DNA of 64,000 nucleotides from Candidatus Poribacteria bacterium (GCA_965205015.1 OZ242029.1:4832001-4896000); one strand, 5' to 3'; shown: positions 9,748 to 14,585, numbered from the stretch's first letter. The notes: generated by a model from the sequence alone, not told the origin. Program-made: numbers and translations.

Positions 9748-10440
9748 ATGGACGCAAACATTCTAATTGTTGAAGATGAACGCGATATTGTAGATTTACT
9801 ACGGTACAATCTACAAGAAGCAGGTTTTGAAACAGATTACGTCCGGAACGGTGCAGATGCTCTCCATCAGGCTGTCGAAAATCCGCCGGATCTCATTTTG
9901 TTAGACTTGATGCTCCCCGAGGTAGACGGACTCATCGTCTGTCGGTTACTCAAGAACGATCCGAGGACGAAAAATATTCCGATCGTGATGGTAACGGCGA
10001 AGACCGAAGCGCGCGACCGAGTGGCAGGATTAGAACTCGGGGCAGACGATTACATCACAAAACCCTTCAGTCCGAGAGAAGTCGTACTCCGTGTATCCGC
10101 TGTGTTGCGCCGCATCCAATCCGGTAAACAAACAGAGGGTACCAAACAGATCGAAACGCACGGACTCACCATCGATCTCGACAAACATCAAATCTTGACT
10201 GAAAACGGTTCCATTGATCTCACAGCAACCGAATTCAAACTCATTACGTTATTCGCACGTTCGCCAGGACGCGTCTTTACTCGCGATATTTTAATGGAGG
10301 TCATCTGGGGACAAGAATATTACGGCATTGATAGGACAGTGGATACACACGTCAGTCGCCTTCGCCGTAAGCTGGGGGAATTCGGTAAGCATATTGAGAC
10401 AGTACACGGGGTTGGGTATCGGTTCAAGGAAGTCGGTTAA
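9748..10440 (+). CDS. OmpR/PhoB-family response regulator (no adjacent kinase)
   Basis: Receiver domain (VEDE, LLDLMLP, KPF) plus winged helix (RTVDTHVSRLRRKL, VHGVGYRF). Confidence 0.93.
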   Translation: MDANILIVEDERDIVDLLRYNLQEAGFETDYVRNGADALHQAVENPPDLILLDLMLPEVDGLIVCRLLKNDPRTKNIPIVMVTAKTEARDRVAGLELGADDYITKPFSPREVVLRVSAVLRRIQSGKQTEGTKQIETHGLTIDLDKHQILTENGSIDLTATEFKLITLFARSPGRVFTRDILMEVIWGQEYYGIDRTVDTHVSRLRRKLGEFGKHIETVHGVGYRFKEVG

Positions 10441-10506
10441 GGATTTCTACACCAGAGGCATTCAATCCTCGACGGATTGCCGACTGCCGAGGACTGACCG
10501 TTCATA

Positions 10507-10561
10507 AAGTGCTTTCAAGCGAGAGGGACTCTTAAGGTTCCTCCCGCATTGAAGCGCACTT
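10507..10561. terminator. Long imperfect hairpin between convergent genes
   Basis: AAGTGCTTTCAAGCG...CGCATTGAAGCGCACTT. Confidence 0.5.
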
Positions 10562-10602
10562 GTAACGTGTAGGGTTAAAATATATAGATTCTGCTCCTGT
10601 AC

Positions 10603-10977
10603 CTATGGAAACTGTATTCCCTGTTTTCGGCACACCTTTCGGATTTTGTTAACCGCACCGCCTATCTGTTTCCCGTTCCGCGTAACACCAAAAAGATGTT
10701 GACTGACAACACGGCGGGAAATACCGAGAATGTTCCCAATCTCCTCTTGTGTTTTACCTTTATAGAAGTAGAGTTGAATACACTCGGCTTGGCGTTTCGT
10801 GAGTTCTTTCGCGATAATCAGACGAATTTGCTCAAGGACAGCCCGTCGCTTCGCGCGACGTGCCTCGGTATATTCGTCATCAGGTGCCCGATACCAGAAA
10901 TAGTCTTCGGTAGTAAGCTGATCAAAATACTCCGGTGGCACCGGAATTTCCCAAAAGTCGGGATTGAATTTGGGCAT
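10603..10977 (-). CDS. Small protein containing only a sigma70 region 4-like HTH
   Basis: LTKRQAECIQLYFYKGKTQEEIGNILGISRRVVSQHL; no region 2 within its 124 aa. Confidence 0.75.
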   Translation of the reverse strand: MPKFNPDFWEIPVPPEYFDQLTTEDYFWYRAPDDEYTEARRAKRRAVLEQIRLIIAKELTKRQAECIQLYFYKGKTQEEIGNILGISRRVVSQHLFGVTRNGKQIGGAVNKIRKVCRKQGIQFP

Positions 10978-11030
10978 AGATAGAGCAACTCCCTCGAATG
11001 CGAGGCGATCGCGCCTATGCCTTCATCACA

Positions 11031-11108
11031 CTATTGATAATGGACAGAGGCACCATCGCCACAATTGAATACTTTCAGGTGAAGTGTGACGTGGTTCAAA
11101 CTTAGCAT
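11031..11108 (-). CDS. Putative 25-aa leader/small peptide MLSLNHVTLHLKVFNCGDGASVHYQ
   Basis: Doubled SD AAGGAGGATAAGGAGGT 7 nt before the ATG; ends about 53 nt before the sigma-r4 gene. Confidence 0.55.
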   Translation of the reverse strand: MLSLNHVTLHLKVFNCGDGASVHYQ

Positions 11109-11249
11109 AACGGGTACCTCCTTATCCTCCTTATTGTTTATGATTGGGAACGGTGCAAGCGGGTCGATGTCGTTTCGTAAAGACTGCCTTTTGCAAACCG
11201 TACATGATAGTATACCAAAAAAACACAAAAATATGCCATAAAAAAACGG

Positions 11250-11308
11250 CAATGGTTCACCTATACCCATTTTCGGATGCACTTTTGCCTGTTCCTCTGA
11301 AAAAATTA
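11250..11308 (-). repeat. 59-bp direct repeat, copy A (putative regulatory box)
   Basis: 51/59 identical to 11489..11547 by manual alignment; core CATTTTCGGATGCACTTTTG. Confidence 0.8.
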
Positions 11309-11348
11309 AAAAAATAAGGGACAGAGGGGTTTCAACCCCCCGTCCCTT
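11308..11348 (-). terminator. Intrinsic terminator
   Basis: AAGGGACGGGGGG-TTGAA-ACCCCTCTGTCCCTT followed by ATTTTTTT on the minus strand. Confidence 0.8.
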
Positions 11349-11393
11349 TCCAAAGCGTGTGACACTCGGTGCCACACCCATAAGGGCGTAACA

Positions 11394-11429
11394 CTAATAA
11401 GTGCCACACCTCCTCTGGTTTGCTAACAT
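11394..11429 (-). CDS. Putative 11-aa leader peptide MLANQRRCGTY
   Basis: AAGGAGGT 7 nt upstream of the ATG; 3' half overlaps alternative hairpins. Confidence 0.5.
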   Translation of the reverse strand: MLANQRRCGTY

Positions 11430-11488
11430 AACAAATACCTCCTTTTCCGCAATACAGCGGTATTAGGATACCATCATCATAAAAATGA

Positions 11489-11547
11489 CAATGGTTCACC
11501 TAAACACATTTTCGGATGCACTTTTGGAGGTTTCTGCGAAAAAATTA
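11489..11547 (-). repeat. 59-bp direct repeat, copy B
   Basis: Matches copy A; begins at the GNAT stop codon. Confidence 0.8.
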
Positions 11548-12375
11548 TTCTTCGGGATCAAAAAATATTTTGAGTGGGGCACTCAACTGTGGCGTAACGT
11601 CCTCTTCATCTACCACCTTCTCACCGCTCCATTCGCTGTGCTCAATGCCCATCGTGTAAACCTGTTCTGCGGTGTCGGTGTAACTGAGGTATTGGAACCC
11701 GGCATTCTCAAAACATATCAGTGCCGGTCCGTTGTCAGGTGATACCTGGAGTGTGATCTGTTCAGCCCCCAGTTGTTCAAATACGAAGCGGACCACTTCA
11801 ATGAGGGCATCCGTGCCGTATCCACGGGCGCGATAATCGGGTCGAATGATGACGAATTCGAGGGCAACCGTGTCTGTATCAGAGTGAAGAAAAGTAAATC
11901 CGATGAGAAGACGTGTCGTCCGGATCTCAATAGCGAGCGCGTGCATCCGTTCGTTTTCCATCCAACGGTGCCAATCTTCGAGAAACGTTTCAAACGAGAC
12001 CTGCGTTGCGTAGAGAAGATTCCTGATGCCCGGTCGGTTTATCCATCCCCAAATTCGACGGAGTTCATTTTCAGCGACCTGTCGGAGACGAATGCCGCCA
12101 CCGTGCAGCCGTTCTAACTGACGCAACTGACTTCTCAAGCCTTCCAATTGCGCCGAGTGCGCCCCGACTTGCGCTCCCGCGGCTCGAATCATACGCTGAT
12201 TCGGGCGATCCATGAATTGGGCTTGCTTTACGCGGTTCTGGAAGTATCCGAGTTTCTGTTCACTCCTTTCAATAATACGCATCAAGTTCTGAATGGCATC
12301 TTCCCATTTTTGTAGATCAGCGTTTGCGTCGTCGCGTGTTTCGGTCCGTTCTTCTCTTATCTGAGTTTCGTTCAT
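11545..12375 (-). CDS. GNAT acetyltransferase (RimJ/RimL-like) with N-terminal coiled coil
   Basis: RPDYRARGYGTDAL and DNGPALICFENAGF motifs; SD GGAGGGG before ATG 12375; 59-nt overlap with rsgA. Confidence 0.8.
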   Translation of the reverse strand: MNETQIREERTETRDDANADLQKWEDAIQNLMRIIERSEQKLGYFQNRVKQAQFMDRPNQRMIRAAGAQVGAHSAQLEGLRSQLRQLERLHGGGIRLRQVAENELRRIWGWINRPGIRNLLYATQVSFETFLEDWHRWMENERMHALAIEIRTTRLLIGFTFLHSDTDTVALEFVIIRPDYRARGYGTDALIEVVRFVFEQLGAEQITLQVSPDNGPALICFENAGFQYLSYTDTAEQVYTMGIEHSEWSGEKVVDEEDVTPQLSAPLKIFFDPEE

Positions 12376-13327
12376 ATCTCCCCTCCTTGAATCCAGAGAT
12401 CCGGAGGTAACTTTCATATCGGATCGGACTAATATCCCCAGTTTCAACCGCTTGCTTGACAGCACACGCCGGTTCGTGTTGGTGTGTACATGCGGCGAAT
12501 TTGCACTCCGGAATATAAGTCCGCATCTCCGGAAAATGAATATCTAATCCCTGTTCTTCATCAATTTCAAGCAAGCCGAGCGTTCGGATCCCGGGTGTGT
12601 CGGCGACGAACCCGCCGAATTCGAGGGGCAACAGCATGACCTCTGTTGTCGTATGCCGTCCTTTGTGGACGCGTGTATCCACCTCACCCGTGCGTAATTG
12701 GAGTCCCGGTTGTACCGCATTGAGCAGAGACGATTTCCCAACCCCTGATGAACCTACAATTGCAGAAATCCTATCCCGCATCACCTCCCGCAATTCTTCA
12801 ACACCCACACCTGTCACGATACTTGTATAAACCACTTTATAACCTAATTCTTCATATAATTTGAGTTCACGCTGTACATTCTCGAATTTCGCCAAATCAA
12901 GTTTGTTAATACAGATAACGGGTTCAACGTCAGATGCCTCGGCGGTGACGAGAAATCTGTCAAGCATCCGCAGTTTGAGTGTCGGATGCCGTGCCGCAAA
13001 GATAATGAGAAGCATATCTAAGTTAGCGACAATCACCTGCCGCCAGCCGTCCATGCGAATCCGCCCAAACTGGGTATCCCGAGGAAGACATTCCTCAATG
13101 TATCCACTGTCCGCTGTGGACATAGCGGTAGAAATGTGTACTCGGTCGCCAACGGCGACGAGATCCACGTACGGCATCTCCTTTGTCTCAGCGAGTCGCC
13201 GTTTTTCATCTTCAATGAGGTGGTGCCGCAAGGCACACGTGTAGCTTCGCTTGCCAACTTGTACCTCATAAGCACCACTTCGCGCTTTTATGACAATGCC
13301 TTCCATAGTTTGATTCAGGGGCGGCAT
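12317..13327 (-). CDS. rsgA: Ribosome small subunit-dependent GTPase A
   Basis: NKLD, GSSGVGKSS, GRHTTT, DTPG and CKFAACTHQHEPAC zinc finger; start chosen by SD GAGGAG. Confidence 0.93.
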   Translation of the reverse strand: MPPLNQTMEGIVIKARSGAYEVQVGKRSYTCALRHHLIEDEKRRLAETKEMPYVDLVAVGDRVHISTAMSTADSGYIEECLPRDTQFGRIRMDGWRQVIVANLDMLLIIFAARHPTLKLRMLDRFLVTAEASDVEPVICINKLDLAKFENVQRELKLYEELGYKVVYTSIVTGVGVEELREVMRDRISAIVGSSGVGKSSLLNAVQPGLQLRTGEVDTRVHKGRHTTTEVMLLPLEFGGFVADTPGIRTLGLLEIDEEQGLDIHFPEMRTYIPECKFAACTHQHEPACAVKQAVETGDISPIRYESYLRISGFKEGRYERNSDKRRTDRNTRRRKR

Positions 13328-13352
13328 CAAAGAACTCCTCATGCAACAGCAG

Positions 13353-13616
13353 CTAAGCGCCAGGATTCCGCCAGACAATGCGCCCGCGCGTCAGGTCATA
13401 CGGGGAAAGTTCAAGGGTCACCTGATCGCCAGGAAGCACCCAAATTCTGTGCTGCATTAGTTTTCCAGCGAGATATGCCACAACTTTGTGGTCATTCTCG
13501 TCCAATTTCACCTGAAATAGGTTCCCCGGTAGAGATTCCATAACAGTTCCGAGGACGCGGATCGCCGCGTCTTTAGAGGCTTCACGGGTCTTGGTTGTCG
13601 CGTTTTCATTTTTCAT
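13353..13616 (-). CDS. infA: Translation initiation factor IF-1 (divergent)
   Basis: [18 protein letters not shown] motif; SD GAGGAG. Confidence 0.9.
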
Positions 13617-13703
13617 TTTCTATTCTCCTCTTTTTTTAATGACTCTTTGTTACCTTTAACATTATATTGGATGCACTTTATTAACGAATTGTTCGGAAAA
13701 AAG

Positions 13704-13732
13704 TTGACATCCAGCCTGAAAAGTTGTAAAAT
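13704..13732 (+). promoter_or_regulatory. sigma70 promoter
   Basis: TTGACA-N17-TAAAAT. Confidence 0.65.
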
Positions 13733-13781
13733 ACACAAGTAGGAGATTCCATTTCGAGTTTTTTAGAAAAGGAGAAAAATA

Positions 13782-14585
13782 ATGAGCCAAGCCTTACCGC
13801 TTGTAGCCTATCCTGACCTCGAAGGCCAAGTCAAGGCGATGGAGGATGACGGATACGCCTACTTACCGAAAGTTATCGAAGGCGAACAACTTGCGGAACT
13901 TCGTGCCGCCATGGATCGGTTAACCGCAATATCTGAGAGTTTCGATCGGCACGGCACGCCAGAGAATGGCAACGGTTTCCTTAACAAACACATCAACAAC
14001 GCCTTCAACCGTGACCCGGTTTTCCTACAATATCTCGACCTGTCTCCAGTGATCGAATTGGCAGAGGCAGTGCACGGCGACGATTGTCACGTCATCGGTA
14101 TGACAGCATGGGTAACGGGACCTGGGCGTCCCGATCAAGGGTTACATGCAGATTGGCTGCCGATCCCCCTGCCAGCGGATATTCTGGAAGACCCGCGCGT
14201 CAAGGTGCCTATTTTCATTTCAACGGCACACTACTACTTAGATGACCTTTACGAAGACCTCGGTCCAACAAAATTCATTCCCGGTAGCCATCTTTCCGGA
14301 CGGAGACCTGACGGCGAGACAGAGTGGAAAGGGGCGACAGAAAAGAGTATCCTCTGCAATAGTGGGGATGTCGTGATTTTCCGGAGCGAAGTCTGGCATC
14401 GCGGTACAGCAAACCGTAGCGACCAAACGCGTTACCTCTTACAGGTACATTACGCGAATCGGATGATCACTCAGAAATATCCACCCTATCTGAACCGGTT
14501 TCAGTTCAACGATGAAATCTTGGAACAGGCAACGGAACGTCAACAACGATTAATGGGCAATCATCGCCCCGGTGCCTACGATTGA
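13782..14585 (+). CDS. Phytanoyl-CoA dioxygenase (PhyH) family protein
   Basis: LHAD, GPTKFIPGSH and WHRGTAN motifs (HxD...H triad). Confidence 0.9.
   Translation: MSQALPLVAYPDLEGQVKAMEDDGYAYLPKVIEGEQLAELRAAMDRLTAISESFDRHGTPENGNGFLNKHINNAFNRDPVFLQYLDLSPVIELAEAVHGDDCHVIGMTAWVTGPGRPDQGLHADWLPIPLPADILEDPRVKVPIFISTAHYYLDDLYEDLGPTKFIPGSHLSGRRPDGETEWKGATEKSILCNSGDVVIFRSEVWHRGTANRSDQTRYLLQVHYANRMITQKYPPYLNRFQFNDEILEQATERQQRLMGNHRPGAYD

Follow-up and report, generated by a model that had tools for sequence, protein, structure and literature searches.

What is encoded in the two repeat-bearing units that lie between the stop codon of a GNAT acetyltransferase gene and the gene for a 124-aa helix-turn-helix (HTH) protein in Candidatus Poribacteria, a group of uncultured sponge symbionts? 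The question arises from a 64-kb stretch of one poribacterial genome (GCA_965205015.1, OZ242029.1:4832001-4896000; hereafter, the window), in which infA, rsgA, the GNAT gene and the HTH gene are all located on the minus strand, as are all the window features described below unless indicated otherwise. A sequence-only reading of the window had interpreted both units as leaders, each with an extended -10 element and a leader peptide, in a translation-stress circuit where the HTH protein binds a shared box at its own locus and at infA. As a whole, this interpretation is partly supported by the comparison of related genomes. The arrangement that we favor is a conserved poribacterial regulatory module combining a promoter class marked by the box, an RNA encoded by unit 1, and the HTH gene preceded by a switch-like leader, unit 2; the composite carries slightly less than an even chance, and its parts differ in probability.

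The comparison is anchored on the 124-aa protein, for which 285 homologs were identified, with the source names shown being poribacterial in all cases except for one record from a sponge (Geodia barretti). A scan of species-representative genomes yielded 215 loci encoding this protein; the best 80 of these were used for the locus comparisons, and all 79 that carry an organism name belong to Poribacteria. Genome-wide counts were taken in related poribacterial genomes, and the phylum-level counts of the box, unit 1 and the HTH gene come from a sample of 81 genomes.

The strongest evidence concerns unit 1, which is predicted to produce an RNA of about 190 nt (11305..11495, with putative ends). 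From an alignment of 56 distinct sequences (A2), RNAalifold derives, in order, a 10-bp 5' hairpin, a UCCU:AGGA pairing that encloses a CCGC/GCGG hairpin and joins TGGTATCCT to the Shine-Dalgarno (SD) sequence of a short open reading frame (ORF), the SD and this mini-ORF themselves, either one long hairpin or two nearly identical 10-bp hairpins, and finally, a terminator. In this fold, 99.5% of the alignment cells pair, compared with 39-60% when the partners are slid, and 9 pairs are changed on both sides, compared with 2.9 +/- 1.0 in shuffles (a number reached in 0 of 500); the twin-hairpin alternative, with 99.0% of the cells pairing, fits equally well. The intrinsic terminator (11305..11348), detected by a terminator scan as a 13-bp stem followed by a T run, covaries as well, with 4 stem pairs changed on both sides. 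The 5' hairpin, which also covaries and has a loop of variable length, begins just past the box-TATAnn element described below, which argues that the region of TGGTATCCT (at about 11472, as read directly from the sequence) is transcribed RNA rather than a promoter. Thus, TGGTAT(C/A)CT, proposed in the sequence-only reading as an extended -10 element of both units, can be retained for unit 2, where the corresponding element is conserved, but not for unit 1, where it is buried in a covarying transcript. The combination TTGTCA-N15-19-TATCCT was likewise considered as the unit-1 promoter and rejected because the spacer has no fixed length (15-19 nt) and each of the two elements belongs to a covarying RNA helix.

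Mini-ORF 1 (11394..11429) encodes 11 aa, MLANQRRCGTY, behind a perfect SD located 7 nt upstream, and in most relatives, the peptide consists of 10 aa, MLANQRRC(D/G)T. The perfect SD, the ATG and an in-frame stop codon in the hairpin loop are kept in all 56 sequences. The start motif AAGGAGGTAnnnGTTATG(T/C)TA is found in both units, and the small ORFs of both carry AAGGAGGTA SD sequences; in addition, mini-ORF 1 contains an internal SD-like AGGAGGTG / AGGAGGUG, with AGGAGGTG being presumably complementary to the 3' end of 16S rRNA. In deep lineages, with HTH protein identity of 45-60%, the parts of unit 1 follow in the same order, including the SD, the ATG and an ORF of 9-10 codons that ends in the next hairpin, the terminal hairpin lacks the T run in deep group A, and the peptides differ (MKLLRWCDR, MFKSPRWLET). 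Because these lineages keep the parts and not the residues, the act of translation or ribosome binding seems to be more conserved than the peptide.

A search of positions 10300-13900 of the window against Rfam 15, with E-values up to 5, produced only a chance microRNA match outside both units, and in 13 other box loci, no family reached its gathering score; the unit-1 RNA belongs to a new RNA family, with no match among the Rfam families. With its conserved structure, intrinsic terminator, downstream genes that vary or converge, and a promoter suggested by motif conservation, unit 1 has the makings of a terminated small-RNA gene, and very probably is an independent gene for a structured RNA.

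This independence can be gleaned from the distribution of unit 1 among the genomes. With a profile built from 18 loci, full-length unit 1 was detected in 64 of the 80 loci, in each case immediately before the HTH gene and in its orientation. The most common gene order is infA-rsgA-GNAT-unit 1-HTH (34 of the 80), followed by unit 1-HTH (16), the HTH gene alone (15), infA-unit 1-HTH and GNAT-unit 1-HTH (5 each), with minor orders accounting for the remainder. According to a BLAST search, 51 of the 81 genomes contain one full-length copy each, one more genome has a 24-nt match alone, and all 51 also encode the HTH protein. Five genomes in which the HTH locus lacks unit 1 have it elsewhere. In the four of these that were examined (L160-L163), the gene for a PhyH-family protein is followed divergently by infA and then directly by unit 1, and where unit 1 and the HTH gene share a contig, about 1 Mb or more separates them. 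Downstream of unit 1, these genomes have insertion sequence-like ORFs, a convergent gene (L161), or an HNH-like gene followed by rnpA and yidC, with no constant gene among them; the constant neighbor of unit 1 is infA or its operon, on the 5' side. Given its own terminator and the lack of linkage with the HTH gene in at least four genomes, unit 1 is not a leader of that gene. The claim that both units are leaders, therefore, survives for unit 2, with its conserved ORF and alternative structures, but fails for unit 1, a separate terminated RNA gene.

Transcription of both unit 1 and the HTH gene is hinted at by metatranscriptome contigs from four studies, in which the summed word depth of the HTH gene exceeds that of GNAT-rsgA-infA by a factor of about 2 to 100, and unit 1 likewise has a greater depth than these three genes; contig depth is a poor measure, given that starts, strands, ends and true levels cannot be read from contigs and that uncovered parts carry no meaning.

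The element shared by unit 1 and the infA operon is the box, the 11-mer AAAGTGCATCC, which occurs in exactly three copies in the window, all on the minus strand (11524-11514, 11285-11275 and 13679-13669). The first two copies reside one in each of the two 67-nt members of repeat family D1 (11242-11308 and 11481-11547), which a repeat search shows to be 85% identical, in agreement with the 51 of 59 identical positions claimed earlier for the 59-bp repeat in the homologous units that follow the GNAT stop. When one mismatch is allowed, the window contains four matches compared with 1.15 +/- 1.16 in shuffles, of which 4 in 100 reached four. This window-only statistic is weak, and the reality of the box is settled by its conservation. 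Most of the 80 loci have the exact 11-mer in front of the HTH gene. Of 37 loci examined at infA, 31 carry the box within 300 nt upstream of that gene, 21 of them as an exact copy and 10 with a single mismatch, and the other six have two or more mismatches. Three complete genomes contain 9, 12 and 8 box matches compared with 2, 3 and 0 for the control, the reversed pattern of the 11-mer in the same genomes; the genome-wide scan that the sequence-only reading had proposed gives, over the 81 genomes, 609 matches against 167 in the control, with medians of 7 and 2.

The context of the box is that of a promoter. At unit 1, the predicted promoter (11499..11524) consists of the box (11524..11514), a 9-nt gap and the -10-like TTTAGG (11504..11499), which reads TATAGG or TTTAAG in relatives. 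The second promoter copy (11260..11285), part of the 67-nt repeat, combines the box (11285..11275) with TATAGG (11265..11260); contrary to the earlier picture of paired units, this second repeat copy is lineage-specific, the exact box being found at about -275 to -310 (in one case, at -419) from the HTH start in roughly 20 of the 80 loci. The third copy (13669..13679), also an exact AAAGTGCATCC and correctly placed by the sequence-only reading, lies in the promoter region of infA, and at the orthologous infA sites (L087, L094, L106), the box is followed, after about 9 nt, by a TATAnn-like element. Promoter-like sites from eight genomes have in common, at intergenic box sites outside the locus, the box, a gap of about 9 nt and TATA(A/G)(G/A), often continuing to ...AAAATGTGTATAGGTGAA; several boxes are directly preceded by TTG, which yields TTGAAA-17-TATAAG. 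The box can thus be placed at approximately -32 to -22 of a promoter-like element in which the normal -35 would be mostly missing, and is quite likely to be a promoter-embedded regulatory site. A sigma-70 promoter scan found the promoter of neither unit under its rules. Two other identities of the box were considered and rejected: a dispersed repeat or mobile element, because the promoter-like sites hold fixed positions in front of orthologous genes, and a site of the extracytoplasmic function (ECF) or sporulation sigma type, because nothing is conserved 15-17 nt past the box core, as judged by inspection of the sites against the consensus sequences of these sigma types.

The box is not specific to the HTH locus and infA, as had been supposed: each genome has some 5-10 additional box promoters, which precede genes of various kinds. 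The genes behind box sites include, besides the infA operon, those for a second RsgA-family GTPase, ABC-2 and MacB/FtsX permeases, several WD40 proteins, a DAO oxidoreductase, a GNAT protein, and some transposases or resolvases. The second RsgA-family GTPase (L089:1623-2834 and L107, in genomes G001 and G002) has an N-terminal extension of about 110 aa and a box promoter, and the box heads both rsgA paralogs. Two genomes, G027 and G030, carry a multi-copy element, probably a mobile one, that includes the exact 11-mer in identical context, mostly inside a long ORF (L130, L131, L136, L141, L145, L146, L150, L151 and L156). Elsewhere, five tandem 136-nt units are located upstream of a unit-1/HTH locus (L041:1165-1885), each opening with a one-mismatch box that is followed by a TGTGTATAGA promoter-like element.

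Unit 2 has a different organization and is probably a leader of the HTH gene, roughly 225 nt in length, that contains an upstream ORF (uORF) and resembles a switch. Its predicted promoter element P2, TGGTATACT (11209..11217), is an extended -10-like sequence of the HTH mRNA recognized by the conservation of TATA(C/A)T: of the 77 loci for which the upstream DNA was long enough, most have a TG-preceded TATA(C/A)T at about -215 to -270 relative to the HTH ATG, loci without unit 1 and the box among them, and the P2 region of the L052 group reads TTGCGA-17-TATACT. In most lineages, P2 would be the only promoter of the HTH gene. The leader contains uORF2 (11031..11108; 25 aa, MLSLNHVTLHLKVFNCGDGASVHYQ), preceded by an SD, and the sequence-only reading was correct in locating this ORF, as well as the 11-aa ORF of unit 1, with their SD-ATG-(T/C)TA starts. 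A uORF with an SD and ATG, 23-39 codons in length, is present in 77 of the 81 loci, and its stop codon is 43-56 nt before the HTH ATG in 76 of the 77; deep groups A and B have the uORF as well. The conservation of the uORF and the box in relatives, which the sequence-only reading had named as a check, is thus borne out. The N-terminal part of the encoded peptide, ..LNH(A/T)TL(H/N)LN.., shows some synonymous variation.

The most conserved parts of the leader are apparently conserved as RNA. Segment 2, the block GGCGATGGTGCCTCTG inside uORF2 (11045..11060), is unchanged in 29 of 29 leaders and is read in two frames, as GDGAS in the clade of the window and as RRWCLC in most others, so that the constraint is on the RNA and not on the peptide; selection at the peptide level on the C-terminal part of uORF2 was rejected on the same grounds. 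This block pairs either with the SD of uORF2 or with segment 3, GGCATAGG (11014..11021), which is unchanged in 34 of 35 leaders, again including deep groups A and B, the one exception being L167 with GGCATGGA. In the RNAalifold prediction, the segment 2 block forms stem A with AUGGCAUAGGC further downstream; one pair of this stem shows a compensatory change from AU to UA in 4 sequences, and in deep group A, GGUGCCU/AGGCACC is replaced, as judged by eye, with GGUACCU/AGGUACC. The alternative partner of segment 3 is CTATGCC, which holds the HTH start codon and pairs with GGCATAG. Next to it, alignments A3 and A4 suggest an anti-SD hairpin (10989..11005) of CCTCG with CGAGG of the HTH SD GAGGGAG, the partners changing in step, by eye, as CCUCG/CGAGG, CCUCA/UGAGG and CCUUC/GAAGG. 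The minimum-energy folds of the leaders from 8 species alternate between state I, in which the uORF SD GGAGGUACC pairs with the block GGCGATGGTGCCTCTG and GGCAUAGG with the HTH start region, and state II, which contains stem A. A uORF with its own SD and mutually exclusive pairings, one of which hides the HTH start, are features of leader-peptide translational attenuators of the erm/cat type, and a translation-sensing leader for the HTH gene appears plausible.

Some sequence is shared between the two units outside the 67-nt repeat. The 3' arm of the unit-1 terminator (11314-11327) and the invariant leader block (11037-11050) have in common CCTCTGTCC(A/C)TTAT, repeat family D14, and units 1 and 2 may be old paralogs. 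A trans pairing of the terminator arm with the leader block was considered, given the shared CCTCTGTCC, and dismissed because the arm is locked in its own hairpin.

The gene behind this leader (10603..10977) encodes, as recognized in the sequence-only reading, a sigma-region-4-like protein, with a Pfam Sigma70_r4 match at residues 58-95 (E = 1e-12; 47.8 bits, compared with the cut-off of 24.1), region 4 being the part of sigma-70 factors that recognizes the -35 and binds the beta flap. Pfam reports region-4-type domains alone, at these same residues, with neither sigma-70 region 2, the part for core binding and -10 recognition, nor a WhiB-type domain found in the protein; GerE scores 24.8 bits against a cut-off of 23.5, below Sigma70_r4 on the same residues, and the YlxM/UPF0122 matches are weak. 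No curated NCBIfam family is reached: the sigma70-ECF model gives 40.6 bits, below its cut-off of 42.9, and covers only model positions 96-154 of 165. In the AF2 model (pLDDT 75), residues 1-33 are of low confidence and are followed by a long helix, the HTH, a beta-hairpin (98-105) and the last helix; the best Foldseek matches are sigma region 4 domains, with E-values of 0.01-0.05. The recognition helix GI(S/R/G)RRVVSQH and the N-terminal motif F(N/D)P(D/K)FWE are kept down to 45% identity. A complex of residues 34-124 with the organism's own RNA polymerase beta flap was predicted with an ipSAE of 0.37 compared with 0.01 for the best control, the runs agreeing in at least 63% of the contacts and the partner pLDDT being at least 73. 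The mark used for such predictions is reached by 116 of 157 solved complexes and by 2 of 215 mismatched pairs, and 18 of the 157 as well as both mismatches are at 0.60 or under. Docking of the HTH protein on the beta flap is, accordingly, weakly suggested by the model. In genome G001, the rpoB open frame (G001:C1:3767369-3769852; L174, L175) encodes 1748 aa, with a large insertion that splits Rpb2_6 just after the flap.

Whether this protein reads the box is a matter of association between the two. The HTH protein is encoded in 62 of the 81 genomes; these 62 contain 551 box matches compared with 106 in the control, whereas the 19 genomes without it contain 58 compared with 61 (Mann-Whitney p = 2e-9, not corrected for phylogeny). 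Among the 81 sampled genomes, the box is enriched only in those that encode the HTH protein. In nine divergent genomes, the box precedes the HTH gene by 530-790 nt, in the same orientation, and in a tenth, by 1.4 kb; the boxes of these ten genomes head a divergent unit 1 or, in one lineage, an ORF for a membrane protein of about 100 aa. That lineage (L168, L169, L172, L173) is a deep one, in which the box promoter, about 700-780 nt upstream of the HTH start, appears to drive the membrane-protein ORF in place of the unit-1 RNA. The inference that the HTH protein reads the box is tentative, with chances somewhat below even.

Several observations weigh against this inference and against the wider proposal. 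No box with 0-1 mismatch is found within 4 kb upstream of the HTH gene in 9 of the 80 loci, so that autoregulation through the box is not universal. The co-occurrence of the box and the HTH protein may stem from shared ancestry, with the genomes lacking the protein possibly forming separate clades, and the box counts of G027 and G030 are inflated by the multi-copy element. Any of the sigma factors behind the about 70 region-2 matches of one genome could be the reader instead, and the predicted flap docking is weak and could be produced by likeness to solved sigma-4/flap complexes. The -10-like element mostly ends with G or A, not T, which is unusual for a -10 of the housekeeping type. Finally, the codon-position variability of uORF2, 12.5, 9.3 and 13.1 for positions 1, 2 and 3, is weakly coding-like.

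Taken at face value, the module would work as follows. The box, 9 nt upstream of TATAnn, would define a small promoter class in which it overlaps and replaces a proper -35. From one such promoter, unit 1 would be expressed as a terminator-ended RNA, about 190 nt in length, whose mini-ORF of 9-11 codons would bind ribosomes strongly. In state I of the HTH leader, the invariant block would hold the uORF SD, and the HTH start codon would be paired with GGCAUAGG; in state II, the block would pair with GGCAUAGG instead, leaving the start codon free. Binding of the 30S subunit and passage of the ribosome on the uORF would shift these pairings, so that synthesis of the HTH protein would report translation capacity, the on/off direction being a conjecture. 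The HTH protein is the candidate reader of the box at the -35 position, where it may dock on the beta flap in the manner of sigma region 4, and the genes brought under common control through the box would be infA-rsgA and the second rsgA, the small-RNA gene, and a few genes for transporters and WD40 proteins. The fullest version, in which a free sigma-4 protein is a trans-acting reader of the -35 whose uORF-gated synthesis closes a translation-capacity loop, and the unit-1 RNA is a sensor or sponge of initiating 30S subunits, is improbable as a complete account.

The most serious competing explanation, albeit an unlikely one, is that the box is read by another factor, either an alternative sigma or a different transcription factor, and the HTH protein does something else, for example, binds RNA polymerase or a sigma factor. 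The about 70 Sigma70_r2 matches in a single genome, the functionally mixed genes headed by the box, the 9 HTH loci without a nearby box, and the location of unit 1 with its box far from the HTH gene in at least four genomes are all compatible with such a reader; the confinement of the enrichment to HTH-encoding genomes among those sampled, the box-bearing unit that immediately precedes the HTH gene in each of the four deep lineages examined, the match of an invariant recognition helix with an invariant box, and a box-TATAnn spacing that seems unlike the usual 16-17-nt ECF geometry speak for the HTH protein. Another candidate explanation is a split sigma factor, with the 124-aa protein as the sigma-4 half of a two-subunit sigma comparable to SigO-RsoA, the box as the -35, and a sigma-2-like partner that reads TATAnn. 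The region-4-only composition of the protein, the position of the box on the -35 side of a two-part promoter and, weakly, the flap docking would fit, but no partner gene is adjacent to the HTH gene. The profile search of one genome, G001, yielded no small sigma-2-only partner, all 70 Sigma70_r2 matches being in open frames of at least 182 aa, although a divergent, weakly sigma-2-like partner of the RsoA type could escape such a search. Most of these matches are in open frames of about 900-1050 aa, in which ECF-type sigma domains are fused to long C-terminal regions. We consider a split sigma factor highly improbable.

The remaining explanations differ in the role assigned to unit 1. It could be a cis-acting transcription attenuator, in which, as in the whiB7 or trp leaders, translation of the leader ORF controls whether RNA polymerase passes the terminator and reaches the HTH gene; its place right before a co-oriented HTH gene in 64 loci, the succession of SD-ORF, alternative hairpins and terminator, and the deep group A hairpin without a T run are what such a device would predict. 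The conserved P2 of the HTH gene downstream of the unit-1 terminator, the convergent gene after unit 1 in L161 and unrelated genes in L160, L162 and L163, and the HTH gene located about 1 Mb or more away in those genomes where both are on one contig make attenuation a poor prospect. The circuit of the sequence-only reading, with two leader-peptide units each under a TGGTAT(C/A)CT -10, has in its favor that the repeat and both small ORFs are real, the box is conserved at infA and found at the second rsgA paralog as well, and uORF2 with its switch-like leader is conserved. In its original form, this circuit is quite unlikely nonetheless, considering that TGGTATCCT is inside a covarying RNA structure, a strong terminator closes unit 1, which is unlinked from the HTH gene in some genomes, the second repeat copy is limited to about 20 of the 80 loci, and genes for transporters, WD40 proteins, oxidoreductases and mobile elements are preceded by the box as well. 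Among these readings, the favored one remains the module of box promoters, unit-1 RNA and switch-led HTH gene.

The genes surrounding the units in the window are readily identified. infA (13353..13616) encodes translation initiation factor IF-1 of 87 aa (Pfam eIF-1a, 9.9e-23), and rsgA (12317..13306), a GTPase involved in 30S assembly (RsgA_GTPase, 4.2e-55). The GNAT gene (11545..12375; Acetyltransf_3, 5.8e-12, residues 96-228) encodes an N-terminal extension of about 95 aa without a family match, and its annotated start overlaps the end of rsgA; the best NCBIfam matches are PseH- and RimI-like, far below the cut-off. The HTH gene is flanked by the 25-aa uORF upstream and a convergent response regulator gene downstream, with nothing else adjoining. 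Divergently from infA, on the plus strand, there is a gene for a PhyH-family dioxygenase (13782-14585) with a near-consensus promoter, TTGACA-17-TAAAAT, at 13704-13732, and the PhyH-infA pairing is retained in distant genomes.

A literature search on sigma factors in Poribacteria, and one for small or non-coding RNAs and HTH proteins within two poribacterial papers, found nothing relevant to gene regulation in these organisms. The closest parallels come from other organisms. In the leaders of the whiB7/wblC type and other bacterial regulatory uORFs, the behavior of the ribosome on the uORF is thought to set expression (10.1101/2023.06.02.543512, PMC12121999). Such systems share with the poribacterial locus a gene for a transcription regulator whose long leader includes a short ORF and can adopt alternative RNA structures. 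The differences are that the poribacterial regulator is a sigma-region-4-like HTH protein and not a WhiB-like iron-sulfur protein, that the switch looks translational, with the start codon and SD sequestered, rather than being a terminator-based attenuation, and that the terminator-bearing unit 1 is a separable gene. SigO-RsoA also includes a stand-alone protein with only the -35-reading sigma-4 domain; the poribacterial protein, unlike it, has no adjoining gene for a sigma-2-like partner, possesses a conserved low-order N-terminal FNPDFWE segment and a beta-hairpin after the recognition helix, and shares no sequence family with it beyond the region-4 fold.

Further parallels can be drawn. Activator boxes can replace the -35, as the MotA box of phage T4 does at about -30 together with AsiA, and as pho boxes do. 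Like these, the poribacterial box is about 10 nt upstream of a sigma-70-like -10 with the normal -35 missing, but the candidate reader is a host-encoded sigma-4 look-alike and not a protein of the MotA or PhoB type; we know of no AsiA-like co-factor for the poribacterial box. Dual-function and leader-peptide RNAs, such as SgrS/SgrT and RNAIII/hld, resemble unit 1 in being small, terminated and structured, with a ribosome-binding site and a short ORF; the unit-1 ORF, however, has only 9-11 codons with residues poorly conserved between deep lineages, and contains the internal SD-like AGGAGGUG. Small proteins of the GerE/LuxR and YlxM families have the tetra-helical HTH in common with sigma region 4, but the poribacterial protein, unlike GerE/LuxR, is best matched by Sigma70_r4 and has an N-terminal extension and a wing insertion, and its box is a single asymmetric site, in contrast to the inverted repeats typical of GerE/LuxR dimers.

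For organisms that are uncultured, the locus offers several experimental handles, namely an invariant box with a definable regulon, a candidate regulator of an unusual kind, consisting of sigma region 4 only and apparently abundant in the metatranscriptome contigs, a small RNA beside infA, and a two-state leader, all four of which can be approached in vitro or in a heterologous host, with no need for a culture of the symbiont. If it is true that a sigma-4-only protein reads the box at the -35 position, the poribacterial system would parallel, within a cell, the 'sigma appropriation' practiced by phages, as well as split sigma factors.

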